Part shown: positions 1 through 18,000 of the stretch, in pieces
Layout: each line of letters starts with the position of its first letter
Position numbering within the stretch: position 1 is the stretch's first letter
Source of the DNA: a bacterium
Lineage (GTDB): Bacteria > Myxococcota_A > UBA9160 > UBA6930
Direction of reading: 5' to 3'
Assembly (NCBI GenBank): GCA_024228115.1
Contig: JAAETT010000177.1
Location: 689-64,688, forward strand
Length of the DNA stretch: 64,000 bases
The notes under the pieces: generated by a model
The model's database searches: none
What the model was told of the DNA's origin: nothing
What the model saw: the letters and a program-made list of their open reading frames with translations, nothing else
Made by a program: the position numbers and the translations under genes

Positions 1-3000
1 GGTCGACCACCTGCGGGCGGTCGTCGTCAAAGGGCTTGCGCGGGTCCTGCGGCGCATTCGTCTCCTCGCGGCTCCAGAAGCGGCGCGGATCGGCCGCCAC
101 CGCCTCCAGGGTCGCGCCGGCCGGCAGGATCGCCCCGTCCGGAACGACCGTGCGCGGACCGATGCGGACCCCGTCACCCACCTGCGCGCCCGCGCCGATG
201 ACGGCACCGCGTCCCACGTGGACGTCGGCACCCAGCGAGGCACCCTCGCCGACCTTGGCGCCCGACTCGACGCGAACACGGTCGCCGAGCATCGCAGATG
301 CCGAGACGTCGGCCGTCCTTGCGATCTTGACGGCCTCTCCGCGAATCGGCGCCGCCGGGGTCGCGTCCGCGGGCTGCGGCTCCGGCAACGCGGGACTGGG
401 GATCAGCCGAGCGCCCGCGGCCAAGGCCGGGTCGAACCCGGTCAATCCGTCGTGCTCGAAGCCGATGATGTGGGCGAGCTCGTGGGTAACCACGGTCAGC
501 AGGTCGATGCCTGCCACTTCGAAACCATCCGCAGTCTCGACGTCGAATTCACCGTCGTCCGCGGGCGTTTCGTCGATCCACCAGCCGTGGCCAGCCGCAT
601 CGATGTCGATCTCGACGAGCTGCGAAGAAGCCTGGCCGAGCAGCAGCCCCGGTAGATCGACGATCTCGAACCGAACCTCGCTGAGCTCGGCGACGGCGTC
701 TTCGCCGAAGTTCTCGGCCAACCGCGCGATCGCTTCCTCGACCACCGGCGCCAACGCGGTGGGCTCCAGCGAGCCAACCGACGGGCTGTCCGACTGCGGC
801 GCAGAAGCCGCGAGCAGCGGGGAAGGCAACGGCACCGCGGGCGGCGCGACATCCCCCGCCCGAACCTCGGCGAGCAACAGGTTGAAGTCGTCGATGTCGA
901 CGTCCCCGTCTCCATCGAGATCGCTGCCGATGCCGCTGTCCTGACGGTTTCGCAAGTCTGTCGTGAAGAGCGCGAAGTCGGCCTCGCCGACGAGCGCGTC
1001 GTCGTTCAGGTCCGCGAACACGTCACCGATCGTCGACGCCAAGGTCGCCGTCTCGCCTTGGACGGCGGCCAGCGCATCCTCGACCCAGACGCGCGCGGGG
1101 CGATCGTCGGCCGCAGGCGGCGTCGCCTCCGTCGGGTCCAGGAAGGAGAACTCCTCGAGCGAGGTCTCGGACGCAAAGGCGTCGAAGAAGGCGCGCAGCC
1201 CGACGAGACCGATGCCCTGGTCTTGCTCACGCGCGACGTCGAGGGCGTTGCCGAGCAGCAAGTCGACGCCGCCACCGCCCTCGAGAATGTCCCTTCCGGT
1301 GCCACCAATCAAGGTGTCGATGTCGTCGCCACCCAGCAGGATGTCGGCTCCGCCCTCGCCGTTCAGCAAGTCGTCCCCGGCCTCGCCGGCCAGCAGGTCG
1401 TCTCCCTCGCCGCCATTGATCGTGTCCGCTCCCGCACCGCCGAGGATCAGATCGCGGTTCTCTCCGCCGAGCAGTTCATCGGCGCCAGCGCCGCCGTCGA
1501 GGAGGTTCGTGCCCGACCCTCCATCGAGGGCATCCGCGCCCTCCCCGCCCAGCAGCAGGTCGTCGCCCGCGCCGCCGTTGACGACATCGGCGCCGAGGCC
1601 GCCGATCAGGATGTCGGCACCGGTTCCGCCCACCAGGAGGTCTGCGCCGAGGTCGCCGAAGGCGAACACCGAGCGTGTCGCGTCGCTGGCGTCGACGACG
1701 TCGGCGCCCGCGCCGGCCCCGATCCGCAGGTCCTCGATCCGCGCGTCGTGGAAGATCGACTGCAGCACACCCTCGGCCTGGTTCACCGCGACGACTCCAT
1801 CGTTGATGGCGAACCGCTCCGCACGGTGCGTGCCGAGTACCGTCAGCGAGTCTGCGCTGCCGGCATCGTCGGACACCTCGATCGCTGCCTCCACGCTTCC
1901 GTCCCGCGAGAGCTGGACGAGGTACGCGTCGTCGCCGCCGAGACCTCGGAGGGTCACGGTGTCCACCGCGCCGGCCGCATCGGTCGTCGTCAGCGACGGG
2001 AGCTCCCGTACCTCGATCGTGTCCGCACCGGAGGTACCGACGAGTTCGACCTCGCCGGCGAGGGCGTCGGGGGCGAACGTGATCGACGTCGAGGTCAGCG
2101 TGCTGCGCGGCGCCGTGAGCGATCCCCCCAGGTCGATCTGCGAACCGGAGATCTCGACCGAGCCGAGGGTCAGCTCCCTTGCCCAGAGCGCGTCGGCACC
2201 GGCCCCGTCGATCAGCAGCGACGCCGTCCCCGTGGACGGATCGTATTCGATGACGCTCCCGGCCCCGAAGGACAGCCCGCCGAGCGTGTTGTCCGACGCG
2301 GTCGCGAGAAGCAGCCGGCCATCCGAATAGGCGTGAACGGCCGTCACGTCGTCCGCGGTTCCGAGCAAGTCCTGCGAGAAGAACAGCGACGTCGCTCCCG
2401 TGCTGGAGTCGAGTTCGAAGACGTCGCCCGCCCGGTAGGTCTCGCCGTCGATCGTCGCGGTCTGATCCAGCGACAACAGCGGATTGCCGTTCGCCAGGAT
2501 CGTGACCGCGTCGAGATTGGCGGTCGTCCCGAGCACGAACTGCGTCGAGAAGAACGGCGACGCAACCAACGTCTCGGGGTCGAACCTGAAGATGTCGCCC
2601 GGCTGTACCGTGAGCCCCTGGAGTGTCGCCTCCGTCTCGGTCGACATCAGGAAGGTGCCGTTCTCGAGGCGGTGGAAGGCATCGATGTCTTCGTCGTTGC
2701 CCGGCCCGAACAGCGATTCCTCAAAGAGCAGTCCGCCCTGCCCCGTGCCCGGGTCGATCAGCGCGACGTCCCCGTCTGCCGCGAACACGAGCCCGACGGG
2801 CCCGACCTCGCTGCGGGAAACGGCGACACCCGGGAAGCGGTCCAGTGCGGCCTCCTCGGAGGCCGTGATGTCGCCGTCGAGCTGCAGCGTCGTGTCCGCC
2901 GTGATCGTCAGCGAGTCCCCGGCTTCGAGAGAGGTGCCTTCCGCGAAGGTCGCCGAACCGACGTCGATCGACAGCGACTCGTCTGCGCGGAGGCTCACTC

Positions 3001-6000
3001 CATCCGTGACCGACGCATTCCCTGTGACGCTCCACTCGAGGTTCGAGGCTGCTGTCGCGCTCGAGTCTCCGGACGCGATCGCCGAACTCGCCCCGGTGAC
3101 CGACACGTCTTCACCGGCGAGCTCGAAGCCATCGACGAGGAAGAACAGTCCACCATCCACGTCGACGTTGACGTCCCCTCCGACGGAGACCAGGCTGCCG
3201 AGCCCTTCGTCACCGCCGTCCAGCACGACCCCTTGCGCGTCGATCCGGATGCTCGCACGGGCCGGCGCAGAGACGGCATCGAAGAACGAGCCCTCGACCA
3301 ACTCCGTGAGCTCCGACGTCGCCGGATTCCACTCGAGAATGGCACCGCTGTCGATGATCGCGACGCCCGGATCCAGATAGCGTGCGGAACTAACAAAGAG
3401 AAGCCGACCGTCCTCGTAGGCGTGTACAGCGTCGATGGAGCCTTCGCCGATCAGCTCGTACCTTGACGCGTTCGCGATCGCGTCCTCCGCGAAGAACAGC
3501 GAGGCCGTACCGGTCACGATGTCGTACTCGAACACGTCACCCGCCTGGAAGACCTGGCCATCGATCGTGCCGTCGAGCTGTGACGAGATCAGCAGATTCC
3601 CGCTCGGGGCGACGCTGACCGCGTTGACGCCGAAGGTGTCACCGATCTCACCGAGCAAGAGCGCCGTGTCGTCGTTCGGGTCGTAGAGCACGACGGCCCG
3701 GCGATTCACCGTCAGCCCACCGATCGTCACGAGGTTGTTGGCGCTCGAACCGCTGAACGAGAGGACGTATCGGCCGTCGGGCAGCAGGTGGAAGGCGTCG
3801 AGCCCACGGTTGAAGCCCAGCGTCCCGGGGTCGAAGAGCAGCGACGCGGAGTCCGCGACCGGGTCGTAGAAGACGGCCTGGTCGTCGTTGAACAAGAGCC
3901 CGCCGAGCGTCGCCGTACCCGCACCGGCAATCGACAACGCGAGGCCCGGGTCCATCTCGACCGCTTCGGCGAGAAGGGTCGCCCCTCCATCCACCACCAC
4001 GCCGACCGAGGCCGAGATCTCGATGTTGGGCGCGGTGATCGCGGCCCCCTCGTCGAACCCTACGTTGGCCCCGTCGATCGAGACCGATGCGCTCTCGAGG
4101 GAACCACCGACCACTCGCAGATCGTCGCCCGCCGCGTAGTCGGTTCGCCAAGCGACATCGAGCGTCGAACCCTCGATCGTGAGGTCGATGTCCGCATCGA
4201 GCCGGATCGCGACGGCGTCGACCGCGGTGTTCGTGACCGAGAGGTCGTCGTCCTGCGCTTGGATCTCGATCAGCCGGGCTTGAAGCGCGCTGTCGGCCAC
4301 GTCGACCGGACCGGCCGGTGCGGTGACCGTGAGCCTGTCCCCGACGGTCACGCTCGCGCCGTCCATCGAAACGCCCACGCCCGACGGGCCGACCAGGCTC
4401 GTGATCGCGAGAGAATCGGACGCCTCGATCGCCGAGCCCGTTCCGAATTCGACGAAGGCTCCCTGAACCGTCAGCGATCCCTCGGTCGTGACTGCTGCGC
4501 CATCCGTGACCGACACGTCACCGGACACCGACAGGGTCAGGTCCCCTACGATGTCGAGTCGCGTCTGCTCGCCACCGATCGTGATGTTGTCCACGGTCAG
4601 CGACGCGTCGTCGGCCGAGACCTGGAAGCCATCGAGGATCGAAAGGTCGCCGCCTCCCGACGCCACGAGGCTGACGTCCGCGCCGAGTACCCGGAGATCG
4701 CCCTCCCCCGACAGCGTGATGTCGCCCGCCGTGGCCTCGAAGTCCGCATCGATCGCGCGCAGGGAACCGCCGAACGAGACGTTCTGTCCCGTCAGCGCGA
4801 CGCGGCTCGCGTTCGGGCTCAGCGACAGCGCCCCCCACGACCCGGTGATCAGACCCGCATCCAGCACCAGGTTGCCGACCCCGGTGGAGGGATCCCAGCG
4901 CACGACCGCGCCGGTGCTCCAGCTGACGCCCGGAAGCGCGCCGTTGCCGATGGTCGTCATCAGCAGGCTGCCGTCGTCGAGCGCGTGGAGCCCGAAGATG
5001 TTCGAGAACTGATCGCGCGTGAAGGTCTCGCGCGCGAAGTACTTGCTGACCTCGCCCGTCGTCGGGTTCCACTCGAAGGCGTCGCCCCCGAGGAAGCGAA
5101 TGCCGTCGATGTTCGACGTCAGCCTCGACGACATGACCAGGTTGCCGTTCGGCAGCATCGTGACCGCGTCCACGTCCTGGTTCTCGAAGTCGCTGAACAG
5201 GTCCTGGTCGAAGACCAGCGTCGCCGTATCGGTGCGCGGATCGTACGACACGACGTCGCCGTTGCGGAAGTCGAGGCCCCCGAGGGTCGCGTCCTCAGTC
5301 GTCGAGAGCAGGTAGGTCCCGTCACCGACTTCGTGGAACGCATCGATGTTCTCGCCGAGGTCGGCGAATGCCTGTTCGCGGAACAGGATCGAGCTCTCGC
5401 CCGTCACGTCGTCGTGCAGGATCACGTCACCCGCCCCGTAGGGGAGCGTGCCGATCGTGCCGGCGGTGGAGGCGGACAGCGCAAAGCCGTCGCCGTCCCC
5501 GCGCCAGGTCGAGCCTTCCTCGACGCTGACATCGCCACTCGACGTGATCTCCACGTCGCCCACCGCGACGTCGGCGGTGGCCAGCACCTGGACACCCGCC
5601 GCCGTGAGATCGAGCGTGCCTCCGGCGAAGCCCTCGGTCGCCACCACCTCGCCGGTGACGTCGAGAATGATGGTTTGCGCCTCGATGCCGTCCGAGCTGT
5701 CACCTGCGAGTGCCGTCGTCACTCCGCCGACCCCGAGGTCCCCGGCGCGGTACACGTGGAAGACGCCCTCCGAGCCACCTTCCAGGTGGTCCACGTCGAT
5801 CAGGAACGCCTCGCCGGCGGTGCCGATGCCGTCCCGCGCGTACAAGGCGGCGGCCTCGCCCCGAATCTGGGCGCTCCCCCCTCGGTTCAGGATCCGACCC
5901 GACGAAGCGTTCAGCACGATCGCGTGGAGGACCGCGTCCGTATCGACGCCATCCGCAACCGCCTCCGCGACGCTGAGGTCCTGAGTACTCGCGCCGCCGT

Positions 6001-9000
6001 CGGCCGCGACTTCGTTGACATAGCCACTTGCGAGTGCAGTTCGGAGCGTCACCGCCCCCTCGCCGGAGTAGCCACTGTCGAGATCGAGCGGGTTCACCAC
6101 CCCGCCGATGCCGCCGGCCCCGGCCGTCCCTGCGATCAACGTGATGTCGTTGCCGACGACGTCGGCGGCGGGAAGGCTCGGATCGGTTCCGGCCGTCTGG
6201 CCGCTGGCGACCGGATCTTCGGGATCCACCGCATCCGCGCCGTCGAGGATGAACAGCGCCGACTCGAGCCACACGTCCCCGGTTCGAGACAGGATCGTGT
6301 CGACGAGCAGGTTCGCCGAAGTGCCGACGAGCACGACGTCGCCGTTCGCGACCGCCGTGACCCCGCCGAACTCGATGAGCTCCAACGGGTTGTCGACGCT
6401 GCCAATCGAACCGCTCTCAGCGACCAGCACGGCGCCGGAGCTCTGCAGATTGGTGAAGTCGTGATCGAGCCCGTCGACGATGGACCCACCCGTGGGCGCG
6501 GTCAGATGGACGACGCCACCGGAGTAGATCGTCCCGATCTCGAGATCACCAGTCGGTGTGGTCAGATGGATGTCGCCGCGGGCGCGCGCGTTCACCAGGC
6601 CCGACTGCGGGTCGACGATGAAGGGAGCGAGCGCCGTGCCGATCGAGCCGTTGGCGGCTTCGAGCACGAGCTCCCCGGTCGTCAGCGTTCCGGTCAACGC
6701 GAGGTCCCCATCGACCTTCACCCGGACGCTGTCCGTCCCGGCGTCGATGCCGGCCAAGGTCACGTCGTCCTCGGAGCCGAGGTCGACGCGTCCGTCGGCG
6801 GTGATCGTGACCTCGCCACTCGCTCGGATGTCGAAGTCCTCGGCGAGCTGGATCCGCACCGTTTCGATCTGGCCGATCTGGGAACTCGGATCGACGATTG
6901 CGGGGCTCAGCGAGACGCCCGTCGCGCTCTCCGGCACCAGGTCCGTCGCCACCGTGATGGACGTCCCGTCGATGGCGACGATCTCCAGCGCTTCGCCCGC
7001 CGTGTCGTTGAACGACGTGCCTTGGATCTCGAGGAAGCCGCCGACGGCGAACCCGCTGCCGAGCGTCGCACCCGACACCTCGAGGGTGCGCAGATCGGTC
7101 ACGAGCACCTGGATCGCCGCGCCGGTCACGCCGTCGAACGCGATGTAGGTCACGTCTTCGCGCTCCGCCTGTGCCAGCACACCCCTCTGCTCTTCGGTCA
7201 GGGTGATCGGGTCCACCGGACTCGTGTCGATGTCGAACGCGGCTTGCTGTGAGCCGATGCCGGCGCCGTCCACGTCGATCGTCACGTCGACGCCGACGAC
7301 GTTCGGATCCTCGATGTCGACCGTCGTGTCACTGGTCGCGAGCAACAGGCCCGCGCTGTACGTGGTCAACAGCTCGTCCGCGGTCCACTCCCGCGTTCCG
7401 CTCTCGAGGGCGGCAGATTCCTCGGCGGTGAGCGTGTAGGTGAAGTCCGGATCGAAGCTGTCCCCGAAGCTCCCGTAGAAGGCATGCAGCGCGTGGTAGG
7501 CCAGCGTCTCGGCCGCCTCGAGGTCCTCGACCTCGGTCTGCGAGAAGCCGAGGGCGAGCAGGTCGGTCACGGTCGCGTCCGGGAAGGAGAGGACGTGATC
7601 CGGGTCGTAGACGTTGACGCGATAGACGAGCTCGTCGCCGACGGAGAGTCCGGCTGCCGGCAGCGCGTCGCCGACGAGGCCATCGACGGCATCGAAGGTC
7701 AGCAGCTCGCCCGTCGACACGACCGTGAGGCCGTGGTCGCCAGCGATCTCGCTCGCACGGAGCTCGAAGGCTTCGCCCCCGATGCGGTCCGACACCTCGA
7801 TCGTCGACCCGTCGCTCGAGACCACGAACAGCGTCGCGCCGTCTTCGAGGTCCGCGGGTTCGACGCGACTGATGGGGGTGGCGCCGGTCTCGGCCACGAA
7901 GGCCACGAGATCGCCCGTCTCGAGCCCCGCACCCTCGAGCACGATCGTGTCCGCAGCCGGGTCCAGGTCCGCTCCCGGGTCGAACAGCGTCACGGGCAGG
8001 AGCGTCTCGGTCCCGACCAGGTTCAGCAGCGCGAGGCGATCGGAGCCGACCGTGTCCACCGCCAGCGAGAACTGGTCCGTTCCGACGTCGCGGGCGTAGT
8101 AGATCACGCCGCTGTCGAGGCCGACGCCACCTCCCGAATCGCCGCCCCCGTACGCGAGGGCCTCGCCTTCGCTGAAGCCGTGGTCTTCGAGCGTCACGAC
8201 GCCGAACGAATCGAGTAGCGCGACCGCGTCCAGGTCCTCGTCCGCCCCGTCGAAGGATGACCCGTCGAACACGAGGATTGCCGTCGCGGTCCCGTCGGCG
8301 TCATAGGCGACCACGTCGCTGCTGCCGAACGAGAGACCGCCCAACGTGGTGTCGTCGAGGCCTTCGACGGTCAGCAGCAGCAGTTCCGTGTCCCCCACGG
8401 TCAGCACCGACACGCCGTTCACGTTGCGGTCCTGATCGGTGTTGACCGCGGGATCGCTCCCGAAGAGGTCCTCGTCGAACAAGATCGTTGCGGATGCCGG
8501 GGAGCGGTCCCACCGCGCCACGTCGCCATCGCGGATCGTCGCCGACGAGAACTCCAACTCGCCGAGCTCATTGAACCCGATTCGGACGGCGCTCCCGGCG
8601 AGCTCGCCGAGCGTGTCGTCCAGAGTCCCGCGCACCTGGTCGTAGAACTCGTTCAGCGTGTACGTCGTCTGAGGGATGTCCAGACTGCGGCCCGCTCCGG
8701 CGGCGAAGACCGAGAAGCCAGCATTCGGCGTCACCTGGATCTTGTGATTCTCCTTCACGAAGGCGTCGAAGATCGCTCCCCACCCGTCGATGATCGCGTC
8801 AGCGCCGGCCGGACCGCCCTCGAGCCGGGCCTCGATGCCGGTTTGCGTGAAGTCGAGCTGAATCCGAAGCCCGAGGTCGCCCGCCAGGAGAGCCTGGTTG
8901 ATCTGCCCCTCGATCAGTTCGGCCATCTGCTGGCCATCGTTGACGGTGTCGCGGAAGATCGCGTTGCCGATCGTGAACCCGGACACGCCGAGGCGGCTCG

Positions 9001-12000
9001 CGGCGAGTTCGATCTCATCGCGCAGGTTGATCACGCCCGTCCCGCCCGTTAGGCCGGTGAACTCGAGGTCTTCGTCGGGCACCAGGTCGAGCAACTCGAA
9101 GCCCGCGAAGGTGTGCAGGGAGACCACCCAGATTCCTGTGTTGATCTGCCCGACGCTGGCGGTGATCGTGTCGTCGGCAGAGAACAGAACCGAGCCGTCC
9201 GCACTCGTGTGGAACGCATCGATGTTCCAGAGGCCGCTCCCCGCGAAGCGGATTTCGGCTGTTCCGGCCGACGGGTCGTAGGCCACGATGTCGTCGGGTC
9301 CGAACGAGAGCCCCGCCAGGGTCGCGTCGCCGTCGGTCGAGAGCAGGATCGTGCCGTCGTCTTCGACGAACACCGCGTCGACCTGAGCGCTGCCCGACAG
9401 CAGCGACGTGTCGAAGAGCCGCTCATTGGACTCGGCGCTCTGATTGACCTCTCGCAGACCGCCGGTCGCGACCGAGGTGTCCCCGAAGAGGGTCGCGGCG
9501 TCGGTGGTCGACAGCGCCAGGACGTTGGACAGCTCGATGTCGCCGCTGGCGAAGGACGACCCATCCGCGATCACCGCGAAGCCCTGCCCACCGCTCGCGT
9601 CACGGCCGTCGACCTCGAGGAACTCGTCCGCCTCGAAGCGCACCTGGTCCTCGGCGAACTGGACCGCGCCGCCGTCACCCACCGAGACGACGAAGGTCGT
9701 CGCCGGATCGATCGGGTCACGGGCGTTCAGCACGTCGATCCCGTCGTAGGGCTGGGTGTCGCGCAGGTTCCAGTAGCGCCGATACTCCGCCTCACGCACG
9801 GACGCGAACTGCTCCTTCAGCGCGGCGACCTTGTCGTCCACGTCGTCGCCCGTGAGCTGCAGATCGGCCCAGAGCCCACCCTCCAGGTCGGCCAGCGTTC
9901 GGTCGTCCACACGCTCAACCGCGTTGACGTCGATCAGGCTGCCGCCGCCGGCCACGCTGATGCCGACGTTCCCGCCGGCGACGATCTCGCTCACCGGGAA
10001 GTCGAACCCGCCGGAAGAGGAGTCGTAGTCGAGGAAGACGTCGCCCGCCGCGAAGACCTCGAGCGGTGCCATCTGCTCGAATCCGGCGACGCCGTCGCCC
10101 GCATCGCCGTCGATCGTCACGGGAAGCTCTGCGCTTCCGACACCGCCCCCCTCGGCCACGATCAGCAACCGATCGAGAGCGCGCACCGAATCCGCCTCAC
10201 CGCTCCCGACGAAGCCTCCCGCAGTCGAGACTTCCACGGCGCCGAGCACGGACGAGGCCTGGTCGAGCTCGATCGTGCCGTCGCTCACGTTGGTGAGGAA
10301 GACGTCGCCACCCTGGGCGCCAGCCTCGAGGCGCCCGCCGTCGCTGACGAGCGTTTGGAGGGGCTGCTCCTCCGTGCCGATTCCGCCGACGGTTTCGTCG
10401 ACGCCGAAGAGGCGGACGTGATCGCCACCGACGCTGACATCGGGAGACGCGGTGATCGTCTCGCCCACCACGTGGGTCACGCCGTCGGGATTCCGAATGC
10501 CGCCCAGCAGGTTGACGGAGCCCTGGCCGGACTGAATCGACACGTACTCTTCGGCCTCCGGATCGACGGCACCGAAGAACGTGATCCCGATCGGGCGGTC
10601 GGCCTCGATGCTGTGCGTGTGGAGGTTCTGCGTCGTCTGGCGAGTTTCGTAGGTCGACGTGTAGGTCGTCGAGATTCCGAAGGGGTCGTTGTCCGTCTGC
10701 GACGACGAGACCAGCACGGCTTCGCCGGTCGTCTCGACCGACCGCGTGTTGAACGCGTAGCCGCCCGTCACGTCCGGGTCGAGCACGAAGTAAGGCGCAG
10801 TATCGGTCGGCGTGCCGACGGTCAGCACCGTCTCGTCGCCCTGGGTCGTGATCTCCGAGGGGTCCGGCTCGGCGATGTCGAGCCAGTTCTCCGTCGTCTC
10901 CTGGGTCAGCGTGAAGACCGAGCCGGTCTCGACGGCGACGGACCAGTTGTAGCGCCAGCCCTCGGCCGGCTGATAGTCGAGCGTCCCGGAGCTCGACTCG
11001 GCCAGCGTGACCGGGTAGATCCGATTGTGCTCCGTCCCTTCAGGCACCTGGAAGAACAACTGGTTGCCCGCCAGCGCGTCGGCTTCCGTCGCAGCCAGTT
11101 GGAAATCCTGGTAGAGAAGGGAGCCGGGGAGCGGGGGAAGAATGATCGCCCAGAGGATCGTTCCGTCCTCGATCGGCGTGCCATCTGCGTAGCGGAACGG
11201 TTCGTTGCCGTCCGAGTCGAACACCACCGCCGAGGAAACAGACACGTCATTACCCAGTCCATGGCCAGAGTGGCTTTCGAAGGTCCCGGTCAGGGGATCG
11301 TAGAGATGCTCTGTGGTGCCGTCTCCGTTGCCGATGATCGACCTGGGACTTGCGTCGGCGGCGAACAACGACTCCCGCACGCTGCCGTCCGGGAGCCGGG
11401 AGAAGGTCGTGACCGACACGTTCTGGACGTCGATATCGAGCTCGCCGTCCGAGCCGAAGTACACGTCGACCCGAGCGCCGTTCGCGGCGCCCACTGCAGC
11501 TGCGATGGAATCCCGGACGTGGGCCCGATATCCCTCCCAGCTAAAGGTCCCCGCCTTGACGGTGAGGGGTGTGATCACGCCCTGTTGCACGATCGTGAGG
11601 TCGACATCCTCCGTGAGCGTCACGTTGATTCGCTCGGTGAGGACCTCCGACACCCAGTCTTCCAGGAGGACGCGCCGCGCGAAGCTGAGCGAGGGGCCAT
11701 TCAAGGAGATCTTGAGGTCGATGCCCTCTCGATCGAAGTCCAAGTCCGCCCCTCCATCGATCGTGTACAGGGGGTCCTCCGGGAAGCCCGGATCGACGTA
11801 GGAGTTGAAGCTGTTTCTGAGTTGGGCGAGAAGGCCTGTTCCCTCGCTGGCAGTTCCCGCGTTGACCGACCACTTCAACGGGACCGGGGGCTCGAGCGGC
11901 ATTCCGCTCTGGTCGAACTCCTGGACGATTCGCGCGTCGGCAAGACGCGCACCGATATCGAAGTTGTTCCCGAAATTCACGCGGCGCACGACGCCGTCCG

Positions 12001-15000
12001 CCAGGTCGATCAAGTCGTCGATCCCGTCGAACGAGAACGTGGTCTTGGCCTTGAGGGCGTTCTCGTCTCCGAACTGGCCGGAGATGCTCTCCCCGAGAGC
12101 GGGGTCGCGGAACCGGACCACCCCCACACCGGGGTTGGACAGGTCGATCTCGCCCACCGTAACGTCGAAGGTGGTCGAGTTCACGATGTCGACGATCGGG
12201 TAGCCACCGAGCACCCGCACTTCGCCGTTGCCCGTATTCAGCACCCGGCCATCGATCTCGACGAGTCCGCCCGTGCTCCGGATGTCGCCGATCAGCCAGC
12301 TGTTCGCGCCCGCGTCGAAGCCGACCGAGACGCCGTCGACCACGGTCGGGCCGTTCGTCAGGATCTGGCTGCGCAGCCCCGTCGTCAGATCGAGGTCGTA
12401 CCGCTCACGCCCGCTCTCGATGATGCCGTTGAGGTTCAGGTATTCCGCGCGGATGAAGATCTGGCTGGCGCGAATCGCCGTCGCCTCGGACGGCTCCTCG
12501 GCCAGCACGTTCGCGATGGTTTCGGCCGCCGCCGGCGCCGTGACGCCGGGGAGTCCGTCGAGCGCGGACCGCTCGGAGGCCGTGAGGGCCCGGTTCGTAT
12601 GGGAGCCCGCGAGTCCGCCCGGGAAGGCAGCCCGTACCGCATCCTTGACCGAGTCCGCGTAGCTGAGGCCGAACGAGGCATTGAGCTCGGAGTTGGTATC
12701 GGCCCCACCCAGAAGGGTGTTGGCGAAGGTCTGCCACGCGGTCTGTTCTGCCGACGTGCCTTCGGCCACCGCTCCGATCGGGGTGATGTCCGCGAGTTCC
12801 ATCCCGCTGACGATCTGGAACGAGGGCCCGGCCGTCGCCGCGGCCCACGGCTCGAAACCGACGCCATCGATATCGAACTCGGTAACCCCATCCACGATCA
12901 ATCGACCGCCCGCGGTGATCGTCAGGCTGGCCGACGAGATCGTGCCCTCGACGATGATGTCGCCGGTGCCCTGAGACGCGGTCTCGAGCGTCACATCGGC
13001 CGACACCGCATCGATGCCCTGCCCGCCATCCTGCGCGCCCAGGATCGTCAGGTCCGGCCACGTGTAGCGCGTGCCGTTGGCGACGTTGTAGATCGCGACG
13101 TCGAGCGTGTTCTCGATGACGATCTGCGGCACGTCGGTCGCGGTGTTCGGAATCGTGTCGAAGTCCGCTGTCACCGTGGTGTCGTCGAGCGTGACGCCAC
13201 CCGAGGTCTCGTTGCGGATCGAGATCGCGTCGTTGCTCTCGACCGGCAGCGCGTTGAAGAAGAGGCCCCCATTGGTCGGCGGGATGGTCATCCCGGCGAT
13301 CTCCAGGAACGCCGGGGTCTCGTTCGTGACCGTGATACTCGCATCTCCGGGCGCGTCCCAGACACCGGAGCCGACCAGGTCGCCGGTCCGCACCAGCACC
13401 GGCCCGGCCTCGGCCGTCAACGCGCCGATTCGCGCGATCAGTACGTCGACGGTGACGGGAAGGCGGTCGCCGTTGCCCGCGATCGGGGCCCCCAACAGCT
13501 GCTCGACGCCGAGTTCGGTCTCGAGGCGCTCGATCTCTCGCAGATAGAAGTCGCGGAGCTGGATATCGCCCCCCCCGACGGTCGCCAGCCGGGACCTGGC
13601 GTCGTTCAACTCGCCCACCAGCAGGGACGTGTAGTCGCCGCTGGAATTCGACAGGAAGGAGCTGTCGCCGAGCGTGTGCGCGTCGCGCTTGGACGCATCG
13701 AGGGTGAACTGAAGGCGGCCGTCGACCGACTGCACCTCGACCGTGCTCGCCCCGAGAATCGCATCGATCGCTGTCTGCACGTGGGCCACCAGCAAGGCCT
13801 CGGTGGCGAAGCTGCCGGATACGACTTCGATCGTCGAAGAGGTGCCATCGTAGATCAGCTCGAAGATCACGTCCGTCAGCAGTTCGCTACCGCTGACGAC
13901 CGCGTTGAGGGCGCCCTCGGCGACGCCGTCGCTGTAGACCCAGCCCGTGACGCCCAGGCCACCCGCATCGGGCGACGTCGTGTCCCAGCCGGTCAGCTCG
14001 ACCCGCTTGAAGCGCTCGGTGCCGGTCCGCACCGTGCCGTCCATCCGAACGATGCCGACCGTGTCGTTGTCGACGTTGCCCCGGGCGATGCTGGCCGCTC
14101 CGTTGAACTCCCCGCTCAACGAGAAGCCTCCCGCCGTCTGCTCGGCGTTCGCGTACGCGTCGTGCAGCGCCGTCTTGTCCGCCCAGAGGCGAGCGACGCC
14201 GGCGCTCTGCACGAGCGCGTCCGCGGCGACTTCGATGAAGTTCGTCGCGGTCAGCGTGGCGGTCGCATTCAGGTTCTCGCTCGAAATGAGGCTACCGGAG
14301 AAGCCGTCGTGCCGAGCATCGACAGACAGGTCATCCAGGCCGAAGGCTCGATCTGTGCCCGCCAGCAGCGAGACGTCGCCGCGCGCCGACAGCACCGCGC
14401 CCTGCCCCACCACGATCTCGTTGTCGGGCGTCAGCGTCGCAGTGACGGTTCCGTTCACCGGAGTCGCACCGCCATACGTCTCGGTGCTCGACGTGACGTC
14501 GAGCGCGCCGTCGGTCCGTGCCTCGAGGACCAGCTGGCCGGGGCTCACCAACGTCGCGTCCTCCGCGATGTCGATGCGCGCCGTGACGTCGTCGGCCTCG
14601 ACCGAGGTGGTCGTGTCATTGACCGCGACACCGCCGCCGGTGCCCAGCACCACCGAACTCTGGACATCGATCTCGTTCTGGACGTTCAGCGTAAAGACGT
14701 CGTCGTCGCTGACGGCGCCAATCACTTCCAGCACCGCGTCGGCACCCACCTCGATCACGGAGTCGAGTTCCAGCGTCGTCGAGGTATCAACCCCCCCGCC
14801 GGTCAGCGCTCCGCCGCTCGCAGCCCAGAAATTCGCCCGGACTGCACCGACGCCATCCGAAACCGGATCGAGCTGCGGCTGCGTCAACCGATTGGTGGCA
14901 TCGAGATCGATGTTGCGGGCCTCGATCGTCGACCCGTCGCCGATCTTCGTGCGCACGGTCGGCCGGATCGTGTGCTGGATCGTCGCTCCGCCGCCACTCA

Positions 15001-18000
15001 AGAAGCCACCGGCGATCGCGCGCGTCCGCGAGTTGAACTCGGTCTCCTGCGTCGATTCAACGTCGAGCTGGCCGTCACCGCTCCCAGCCGTCGTCCCGGA
15101 GACCAGGTCGATGTCGACGTTGTGGCCGATTTCGGCGCTCGTCACGGTGGTGAAGTCGAACTCGGGCTCCGCGGCGGCGATCCCGCCGAGGATGCCTCCG
15201 GCCGCGATCAGCGCTTCCATCTCGCCGGTGTGGTTGCCGTCTGCGTTGACCGTGACGTTGTCCGCGACGACCGTCACCGCACCGGGCGTTCCCGACGCCA
15301 CGTCCTCTAGATCCGCACCCAGCCGAGCACGGGTGACGGTATCGACTTCGACCGTGCCCAGGACCCGCCCGACGCCCAAGGCGATCCCGATGCCGATCCC
15401 ATCCGGGTTCGCAGACAGGGTGGCCGTGTTCGTGGCATCGACGAGCACATCGCCGTCGATCGTCAGTTCCGGGCCGGGCTCCACCGCCGCGACGACTTCG
15501 CCACGGTCTCGCGCGTCGGCCGAGGTGCCGACCAAGCCCAGCAGGCCGCCGCCGGAGCTCGCAAAGGCGTTGGATTCCGCTGACAGCTCGTTGGCCGCCG
15601 CCGTCTGGGCCCCTTGGACCGTCAGCGAGGATCCGGTGACATCGCCGGACACACCCGCGAAAACCGTCGCATCGAGATTTGCGTCGGAAAGGGATGCGCC
15701 GATCGCGAGACCGACCGCCACCGACGCACCGTACGCTTCGGCCACCGCACGCGGAGACACTGCGGTCGCGAGCACCGAGACGTCCCCGCCGGTGACGTCG
15801 CCGCCCACCAGGCTTGCGGTCACCGTGGGATTGACCGTGGCTCGCGGCCGCGCCGCGTTCAGCGACGCACCGACGCCGCCGGTCGCGGCCCAGGCATCCG
15901 CGTCTCCATGGATGTCGGCTTCGGCCTCGATCACCACGTCGCCGCCGGCCACCAGCGTCGCATCGTCGACGATGGCCTCGGAGCTGCCCCCGGCATCGAC
16001 GAACGCGAACATCGCGCCGACGCCCAGTCCGAGCCCCACGGCACCGCCGTCGGTCTCGGCCTCCGCGCGGGCCGCGGACTGCGACCGCACCGTCACCGAG
16101 CCAGCCGTTGCCGTGATCGTCGGAGAGACGCTCGACGTCGAGGCGTCCCCGATCAGCGCGCTGACGTCGGCGTTGGCCGTGGTCTCGGACCAACCACCCG
16201 CCGCGGCGAGCGCGAGCGCCCCGGAACCACCGATCGCCTCCGCGCGAGTGGCCTCCGTGACGACCGTGCCGTCGACGAGCACGTTATGCAGCGCTTCGAC
16301 CAGGATGTCACCCGTGGAGGTCAGCACGGACGCATCGGCAATGGATGCCCGCACCGTGGGCGTGTTTCGCGACAGCGCCACACTCGCGCCGAGCGCCGCG
16401 GTACCCGCAACCGCGATGCCGACCGAGAAGGCCTCGGGGTCCGCCTCGCTCCGGGCTCGCACCAGCAGGTCACCCGTCGCGTCGATGTCGGCGCCGCTGT
16501 CGATCGTCGCGGTGACCGTCGGCGTGAACTCCGCGACCGCCCCCGCGCCGGTGAGTGCGAACAATCCCGGCCCGCCAGAGCCCATCTGCGCTTCGACCTG
16601 GTCGAAGTCGCCGACCGAGGCGGCCTCGACCGTCACGTCGCGGACGGCGCTGTCCTGACCAAAGTCCGTGTCACCGAAGGTGGCCGTCGTCGACCCGGCG
16701 AGGAAACCGGCGCCGTACGAGACGCCGACCGCACCGAGCAGGCCGAGGTTCGCCCCGACGGCCTGGGCTCGGTCGATCGTCCGATCGGCCTGCGCCCGCA
16801 ACGTCAGATCACCACCGCCGAGGTCCAACGTCGCGCCATCGCCGATCGTCGCGGCCTGGGAACTGCGATCGTTCACGACGGCGATCACCGCGCCACCGGC
16901 CGTGCCGGCCGCCTGCCCCTGGAAGGCCAGGGAGTACAGCGTCGACTCGTACAAGGCCTCGACGACCAGCGCCTCCCCGGCACCGCCGCTCAGCGTGACG
17001 GTCGCACCGGCCCCGACGAAGGCATCGACCGAGTTGCGCAGCGTGCCGATCGCGACACTTCCGCCCGCGGCGATCACACCCACGCCGACCTGGCCGGAGA
17101 TCTGATAGACGTCCGCGACGTCGACGGCTCGCACGTTCAGGCTCGCACCGGAGCTGACCGAGGCGCCCGACCCGACGAAGGCGGTCGTGCCCTGGACCGC
17201 GCCATCGCTGGCCAGGGCGCTCGCCGACGAACCCGACGGCACCTGCAGCAGGCCGTCGCGCAGGCCGTCGGTCAGACTCCCGAGGAAGCTCTCCGTGTCC
17301 GTCGATCCGAGGGCCGCGTAGTCATCGATATTGCCGGCCAGGGTGCTCCCGGCACTCGTGGCCTCGCTGTACTCGGAGGACAGCGCATCGGCCGTCACCA
17401 CGGTTTCTTCCGATGAGTCCGCCGTGTTTCCATCCTCGTCGCGCTGCTCGATCTCGATCGACGAATCGAGTCCGGACCCGATCAACCACACCGAGACGGC
17501 GCCGGTGATCGTCCCGATGCCGGCGCCGAAGCTCACCGCGTAGCTCTCGACCACCTCGTCGGACAACGCCAGCACATCGACGTCGTTGAGAGCCGCCACG
17601 TCGCCGAGAATCGACGCGTTCGTGTCATTGCGGATGAGGCCGACGTCCACGGCTCCGGCGACGGAGACGAGGCCACCCGCACCGCCTCCGGCGGCGCCCA
17701 GGGCCTGAACCTCGTTGGCCGCAACGACGCGGACCTTCTGATCGGAGGCCGCACGGGTCCCGTTGTCCGCCCGCCGGTTGACGCGCGCGTTCGCTTCGAT
17801 GGATGCGGTCGTGTCCGAGTCGATTTCTTCGTAGGTCCAACCGCCCGCGAGCCCGAAGTAGATGCCGCCGTTGGCCGTCGCGCCGATCTGGAACAGCTCC
17901 TCGCTCGAGGTCGCCTGCACCGCGACGCCCGCGAAGTCGGCATCCGTCTGATAGATCGAACCGTCTGCGCCGTGGTTGGTCAGGGTTCTGCCTGCCGTAT

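Follow-up and report, generated by a model that had tools for sequence, protein, structure and literature searches.

Hemopexin-like domains (PF00045; the C-terminal domains of the MMPs, hemopexin and vitronectin) are established four-bladed propellers, and serve as extracellular, non-catalytic binding modules of about 200 amino acids (aa). Their repeats are roughly 45-50 aa long and open with Asp-Ala ('DAA'), and the ring is closed by a disulfide. Four-bladed propellers are, to our knowledge, rare, and those that turned up in literature searches were all of the hemopexin type. The Kelch, galactose-oxidase-type and WD40 propellers have six to eight blades. DUF2283 (PF10049, YuzE-like) is a single small domain with a short hairpin of the form 'xYDxxxDxAxIxF', and the giant RTX adhesin-like and filamentous-haemagglutinin-like proteins are very long secreted proteins. 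The DNA described here, referred to as the window, is a stretch of 64,000 nucleotides from a bacterium of the Myxococcota_A (assembly GCA_024228115.1, contig JAAETT010000177.1, positions 689 to 64,688), and it codes on its minus strand for a giant protein that carries 16 copies of a repeat, here called the DAFH repeat, in four clusters. Each cluster is probably a self-contained domain of about 225 aa, whose most likely fold is a closed ring with four-fold pseudo-symmetry that resembles a beta-propeller, and the four would together make up a binding-module section of a giant secreted protein.

A first profile was seeded with three copies of the repeat and iterated on the 16,760-aa translation of the giant open reading frame (ORF). 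It gave 17 matches in the giant protein, with E-values for single copies down to 1e-23. The repeat that the original prediction, made from the sequence alone, had placed between about 2.3 and 9.5 kb of the window was thereby confirmed far beyond chance. Sixteen of the 17 matches lay inside the four clusters (aa 13,634-16,025, window 9382-2207), and the remaining one was weak and isolated (window 6725-6811, within the spacer between domains A and C). The repeat was confined to the frame of the giant ORF in a six-frame search of the whole window, and six-frame translation of window 2201-2760 showed that the minus strand codes for it. A second profile, built in the other phase so as to start at the 'LLST' strand, found all 16 copies, including four degenerate first copies at E-values of 1e-13 to 1e-18. 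Two further regions picked up by drift of the second profile (aa 6861-6912 and 8249-8297) carry a different motif, 'AGFxxGD', form no arrays and were rejected. The copies are about 57 aa long and share 26-38% protein identity, and no tandem repeat was detected in the region at the DNA level by Tandem Repeats Finder; the repeat is therefore an old one that can be recognised only in the protein. The consensus over 147 domain instances from relatives was IxLSTxxxATLGGLTFxDGDLVEYDPxTDTATLFFDGSLFxxxEDIDAVHVLxNG, and the consensus first read from three of the window clusters agrees with it.

The 16 copies make up four domains (A, C, D and E) of four copies each. Three full copies per cluster were recognised by the first profile, and ahead of them a partial one in which nothing but the DAFH strand is missing. 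When all four clusters were aligned with a homologue the layout was the same throughout, each domain starting from the second strand and finishing with one more strand of the DAFH type. The groups had originally been described as holding about three copies; the second profile and the alignments show that each holds four plus a closing strand.

All four domains are encoded on the minus strand. Domain A (window 8207-9517, aa ~13589-14025) contains repeats at 9368-9517, 9209-9346, 9161-9223 plus 8411-8548, and 8219-8371, as located with both profiles, and ends with the closing strand LDAVALL. An insertion of about 205 aa (8549-9160, minus strand) divides its third repeat where the short ATLGGL hairpin would be, and appears as an alignment gap only in this copy. 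No Pfam or PDB match was obtained for the insertion and no paralogue was detected elsewhere in the giant protein. Domain A could be aligned with the other window domains and with the homologue P0001, and the probable further copies noted at ~8.2-8.5 and ~9.2-9.5 kb could also be aligned, being the two parts of this single four-copy domain. In domain C (4808-5482, aa 14934-15158) the repeats are at 5333-5482, 5159-5311, 5006-5137 and 4823-4963 (second profile) and the closing strand is GALSLSP. Domain D (3221-3940, aa ~15448-15687) has repeats at 3788-3934, 3614-3745, 3422-3592 and 3266-3358 (second profile and alignment), with either FFDAVSA or RIDAQGVVL as the closing strand. Domain E (2174-2797, aa 15829-16036) has repeats at 2672-2797, 2501-2650, 2333-2479 and 2183-2311 (both profiles), and its closing strand is ADALWAREL.

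Relatives were collected by searches of increasing depth. A word-indexed search with one domain returned one relative and a profile search eight, and an exhaustive profile search of 1.84 billion representatives returned 3,337 at E<=1e-3, 1,461 at E<=1e-10 and 324 at E<=1e-30, the 3,337 being cluster representatives at 50% identity. Arrays and architectures were counted in the best 157 proteins of the 3,337. Exactly four copies were present in 132 of the 182 repeat arrays of these homologues and eight copies in 6. A single domain was found in 112 of the 157, and two to five domains in the other 45. Sixty-two relatives were no longer than 330 aa, and at least 47 of these consisted of a signal peptide, four repeats and a PEP-CTERM signal, a type of sorting signal in which the C-terminal motif is combined with a hydrophobic helix and a basic tail. 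At the other extreme, the large proteins P0027, P0038, P0079 and P0149 carry 4-5 complete domains that are 200-600 aa apart, in the same beads-on-a-string layout as in the window protein.

These arrays bear on the idea, raised with the original prediction, that triplets would be unable to close alone and that blades from different clusters would combine to make a single larger propeller. Only three copies per cluster open with a clear DAFH motif, as that idea would have it. The fourth, N-terminal copy lacks nothing except its first strand and is significant in every cluster at the E-values given above, the arrays come in fours and eights, and homologues with a single set of four copies exist as complete secreted proteins. 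Because such stand-alone four-repeat proteins exist, no blades are needed from another cluster. The covariation described below links the C-terminal strand of a set to that set's own blade 1, and domain C in isolation was modelled with high confidence. Assembly between clusters is, in our view, hardly credible.

The structure of domain C was predicted with AlphaFold2 from an alignment of 12 rows. The mean predicted local distance difference test score (pLDDT) was 85.3 and the predicted template modelling score (pTM) 0.83, and the model has four equivalent strand sets. Each repeat is modelled as four long strands, S1 (DAFHxL), S2 (xLLST), S5 (VVSYD) and S6 (ATLVF); a short hairpin separates S2 from S5, and the long linker from S6 to S1 includes a short helical turn. 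The predicted blades are thus four-stranded, like the repeated antiparallel blades of the generic beta-propeller fold. Across the family the corresponding strands would be 'xDAxHxL' (S1), 'xLLST' (S2), 'DxVxYD' (S5) and 'TAxLxF' (S6), and the conserved short hairpin ATLGGLxF would lie between S2 and S5. Since the turn between S1 and S2 is tight and the linker between S6 and S1 is long, the blade is taken to be S1-S2-S5-S6. Rings of this fold are closed, as a rule with a terminal strand that joins the first or the last blade. All 147 full-length instances start at S2 and end with an extra S1, an arrangement in which blade 1 would receive its inner strand from the C-terminus: the domain would begin at S2, and a fifth S1 at its end would return to blade 1 and close the ring as a 'velcro'. 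Searches of the domain C model against PDB and BFVD with Foldseek returned beta-propellers only (Kelch, designed Kelch-like, galactose oxidase, TolB and tricorn), with E-values of about 2e-7 and a probability of 1.0. Propeller blades or a beta-sandwich had been suggested from the length and the hydrophobic pattern of the repeat; the AlphaFold2 model and the Foldseek matches favour a blade-like unit, and the sandwich found no support.

Covariation was measured as mutual information (MI) with average product correction (APC) over 139 non-redundant full-length domain instances from relatives. The S2-S5 pairs 56-79, 170-193 and 113-136 (blades 2, 4 and 3) ranked 1, 3 and 5, which supports the predicted neighbourhood of these strands. 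A residue in the linker before S1 covaried with the hairpin of the same blade (44-65, 101-122 and 158-179) and not with the hairpins of the other blades. The corresponding closure pair, 215-9, joins the residue before the C-terminal S1 to the hairpin of blade 1, 206 positions away, and ranked 12 of 23,436. Its MI was 0.598 against a shuffle mean of 0.251 (sd 0.032; z 10.8), a value reached by 0 of 2,000 shuffles, and control pairs of non-partners had z values of 2.3-4.6. The main states of the pair were Glu-Ala in 73 sequences and the swapped Ala-Glu in 11. This is the signature that would be expected if the last strand returned to the first blade. Strong covariation was also observed between equivalent positions of blades 1 and 3 (19-132, 40-153 and 42-155), two repeats apart, and may reflect either a history of 2+2 duplication or contacts across the axis.

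Several points weigh against a closed ring of this kind and against the arrangement and role proposed for it. Although the Foldseek matches were significant, their template modelling scores (TM-scores) were 0.35-0.41 with a root-mean-square deviation of about 9 A. Such low scores are expected if the number of blades differs, because the blades match and the ring would be four-bladed rather than six-bladed, yet they are also compatible with a different arrangement. The closing strand of domain C is degenerate and was modelled with a pLDDT of 56-67, and ring closure was deduced rather than seen directly in the coordinates of the model. The shuffle null used for the covariation ignores phylogeny, so that the non-partner controls are the relevant baseline and the sole guard. 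When a model of domain D with its flanking spacers was searched with Foldseek, the only matches were propellers, dominated by domain D, and no structural match was obtained for the spacer fold. Lastly, the neighbourhood of the homologue in Pelagibius was made up of unrelated genes, with no conserved neighbourhood and no clue to function.

The first of these points would also suit a beta structure that is open or not a propeller at all, for instance a sandwich or a short solenoid. The repeats would then act only as rigid spacers in the fibre, and the propeller-like model would be an artefact of too shallow an alignment. The modelling alignment was indeed only 12 rows deep, the TM-scores to all solved propellers were no higher than 0.41, and the rest of the giant protein is full of structural repeats. 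An open structure would leave unexplained the strict grouping in fours across the family and the extra C-terminal closing strand, which is conserved even in the stand-alone proteins. It is further disfavoured by the long-range covariation of 215-9, at the level of pairs within a blade, and by the high pTM, and a pure spacer would make little sense as the only domain on a cell surface with a PEP-CTERM anchor. We consider this alternative quite improbable. The propeller-like fold of the DAFH domain is retained as the predicted one.

No sequence family for the repeat was found in Pfam-A, NCBIfam or PDB by profile and sequence searches, in keeping with the original prediction, in which the family was not recognised. 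No Pfam model matched the window domains at threshold, the best being WD40 at 20.4 bits against a cut-off of 27, and there was no Pfam match to Kelch. NCBIfam, run on the domains and on the homologues, recognised only the PEP-CTERM tail of relatives. Searches of the PDB sequences with a single domain and with the profile gave nothing significant; the best sub-threshold match was to the WD40 blades of LIS1, at an E-value of 0.2. The Kelch, galactose-oxidase-type and WD40 propellers appear to share with the DAFH domain the structure at the level of the blade, to judge from the best Foldseek matches and the weak WD40 hits, and differ from it in having six to eight blades instead of four.

A closer relation to hemopexin would make the DAFH domain a very distant member of that superfamily, an extracellular binding module with perhaps ions in a central channel. 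Both have four blades per domain (in the window domains, as in 132 of the 182 arrays) and an extracellular setting, and the conserved Asp-Ala that opens S1 of every DAFH blade resembles the 'DAA' of hemopexin repeats. For a direct comparison, the hemopexin domain of MMP-1 was used as query (its sequence verified against 1su3 at 461 bits). Alignment of the domain profile with it by hhalign gave a probability of 0.4%, and the only paired stretch was 'iDAv' with 'vDAvf' of MMP-1, the very Asp-Ala in question. The hemopexin model of Pfam matched neither the window domains nor five homologues even at E<=10, and no hemopexin-type chain was among the best 50 Foldseek matches. The two also differ in build: the DAFH repeat, at about 57 aa, is longer and has an added hairpin, its ring is apparently closed by a C-terminal strand instead of a disulfide, and it is bacterial and often anchored through PEP-CTERM. 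That all four-bladed propellers in the literature searches were of the hemopexin type counts for the relation, which we nevertheless regard as unlikely. Membership is not supported by these comparisons, yet the DAFH domain may well work like a hemopexin domain.

DUF2283 had to be considered for a different reason, as some relatives carry precomputed Pfam labels, and one a Joint Genome Institute (JGI) name, to that effect. The homologues P0002 and P0005 did score above the cut-off of 23 bits (40.3 and 28.6 bits), and two of the five homologues searched matched the model in three to four stretches. The best-scoring stretches covered only the start of the model (positions 2-3 to 17-32 of 49) and corresponded to the 'YDPxxDTAxLxF' hairpin, a likeness sufficient to account for the labels. 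The four window domains had no match at E<=10 and the full 49 positions of the model were not covered. Moreover, the unit of the DAFH family is a 225-aa domain with a ring of four repeats and not a single small protein domain. That the repeat is simply DUF2283 is therefore very improbable. The DAFH domain is a large family of extracellular bacterial modules for which neither Pfam nor NCBIfam has a model, and no description of it was found in literature searches. It may, tentatively, be a second natural family of four-bladed propellers, unrelated to hemopexin in sequence, closed by a C-terminal inner strand, absent from domain databases, and widely used by bacteria both in surface modules sorted through PEP-CTERM and, like beads, along giant adhesin-like fibres; we put the chance of this whole statement at a little short of even.

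The segments between the domains had been described as beta-helix-like; a beta-helix is a stack of coils of about 18-25 residues, with three short strands to each coil. Spacer C-D (window 3941-4807, minus strand, ~289 aa) is predicted to be an all-beta, solenoid-like stalk. It was modelled with AlphaFold2 together with domain D, for which the pLDDT was 77-92, and spacer D-E. Residues 1-190 of spacer C-D had a pLDDT of 84-90 with short strands every 21-23 residues, the remainder was of low confidence (pLDDT 46-68), and the hydrophobic periodicity of the spacer was 2 and about 21. It had no homologue among 5.8 billion proteins and no significant Pfam or PDB match, the only Pfam hit being a sub-threshold one to the DUF4097 'toastrack'. 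Spacer D-E (2798-3220, minus strand, ~141 aa) is beta-rich and paralogous to spacer C-D; strands only were modelled (pLDDT 55-79), and its sole Pfam hit, below threshold, was Fil_haemagg_2. The longest segment, spacer A-C (5483-8206, minus strand, ~908 aa), is beta-solenoid-like in sequence in its C-terminal half, and contains helix-like sequence in its N-terminal half (~450 aa). It matched only Fil_haemagg_2, below threshold (Pfam, E 0.07), and had no PDB relative. The description is supported for spacers C-D and D-E, with their predicted short strands and coil of about 21 residues, and not for the first half of spacer A-C or for the insertion in domain A. A solenoid fold of the spacers is plausible on the basis of these models. 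In the C-terminal part of the giant protein, just before its RTX block, the four domains would then be strung like beads along stalk segments of a beta-solenoid-like kind.

The giant ORF occupies window 2-50269 on the minus strand (>16,756 aa), with an ATG at 50269, and runs past the left end of the window, so that its 3' end is open and the C-terminus of the protein, with any secretion or anchoring signal there, lies beyond it. A scan for stop-free stretches found this frame to be the sole one, open from 50281 to 2 (16,760 codons), and its GC content at the third codon position is about 0.87. Coding on the plus strand was considered and rejected: the long plus-strand ORFs share one frame that has 45 stops in 51 kb and translates to nonsense rich in Arg, Asp, Glu and Val. 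That frame (window 1-51500) yields ORFs of up to 2,065 aa. They are the giant gene's antisense shadow, and any annotation that relies on ORFs would be misled by them. Close relatives of the giant protein were not found among the metagenome contigs searched.

The N-terminus of the giant protein reads MKRAF..RRR..LEALEPRILLSA, an Arg-rich leader (LEALEPRILLSA at window 50138-50173, minus strand) that may resemble the leaders of large planctomycete secreted proteins. Pfam matches on the whole protein were few, namely FG-GAP, a weak phospholipase-C-like stretch, RTX and, close to where the visible sequence ends, a hexapeptide block. Domain E, the last of the four, is followed downstream by RTX calcium-binding nonapeptide repeats (1253-1630, minus strand; HemolysinCabind, E 7.9e-24), whose GGxGxD motifs span aa 16218-16335. 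Next on the same strand come a dockerin-like DLDGDGDVDIDD (887-922) and HELAHIIGFEHD (449-484; Peptidase_M10, E 0.011), which is a second motif of metalloprotease type, and then a hexapeptide left-handed beta-helix block (143-241). The giant RTX adhesin-like and filamentous-haemagglutinin-like proteins have in common with it the great length, secretion, a beta-rich stalk and RTX nonapeptides, and also interspersed ligand-binding modules (a presumed role in the present case) near the C-terminal end. The window protein differs in that no haemagglutinin or adhesin stalk domain of Pfam reached threshold and in the type of its N-terminal leader.

Other features of the giant protein and its surroundings were recorded. 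A GHELGHIIG (HExxH) motif follows the leader (window 49403-49429, minus strand), and a weak, sub-threshold Pfam match to Zn-dependent phospholipase C was obtained at aa 313-431. FG-GAP_3 repeats are present at aa ~2,950-4,420, and several other families of internal repeats, 25-45% identical and without a Pfam match, at aa ~1,500-11,900. The strand of the giant gene also carries, immediately upstream of it, an ORF of 1,293 aa without a Pfam match (51581-55462, minus strand). A 279-aa protein encoded at 56467-57306 (minus strand) has a PEP-CTERM sorting signal and no DAFH repeats; this signal suggests that the organism has an exosortase system.

The settings of the relatives that were read were exclusively secreted or surface ones. 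Longer relatives combine the DAFH domain with RTX, cadherin-like/Big_9, Laminin_G_3, CBM96, H_lectin and DUF6701 domains, all of which are extracellular or binding modules, and with a dockerin-like tail or a metallophosphatase. In a genome scan, 24 loci were found in at least eleven lineages: Alphaproteobacteria (including the isolate Pelagibius sp. Alg239-R121), Chromatiales, Woeseiaceae, Desulfobulbia, Planctomycetota, Phycisphaerae, Myxococcota, Zixibacteria, Acidobacteria, Actinobacteria and Anaerolineae. The distant relatives P0008 and P0009 carry a variant repeat, 'DEDIxxFxPTSxGxxTxGxxxxxFDGSDVGL...DIDA'; judging from this variant, the superfamily may be wider than the 3,337 matches.

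The secreted and surface settings, the exosortase signals on the minimal members, the lectin-like and adhesin partners, the multi-copy display on stalks and the conserved hairpin together point, with moderate confidence, to a ligand-binding or adhesion module that is likely to be multivalent. In the general topology of propellers the hairpin would share a face with the linkers between blades, which is the face usually used for ligand binding. The insertion in domain A, being placed at the hairpin, would sit on this face too. A surface or glycan ligand would presumably be bound through it.

The interest of the finding lies in the family more than in the locus, where the DAFH domains are, more ordinarily, one more type of module in a giant, repeat-rich secreted protein. 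If the prediction holds, bacteria possess an abundant four-bladed family of 3,337 clusters that is unmodelled and sometimes mislabelled as DUF2283. With a model of the family, annotation would extend to thousands of surface proteins of marine and sediment bacteria, and the small stand-alone members with a PEP-CTERM signal would offer a tractable route to the structure and the ligand.

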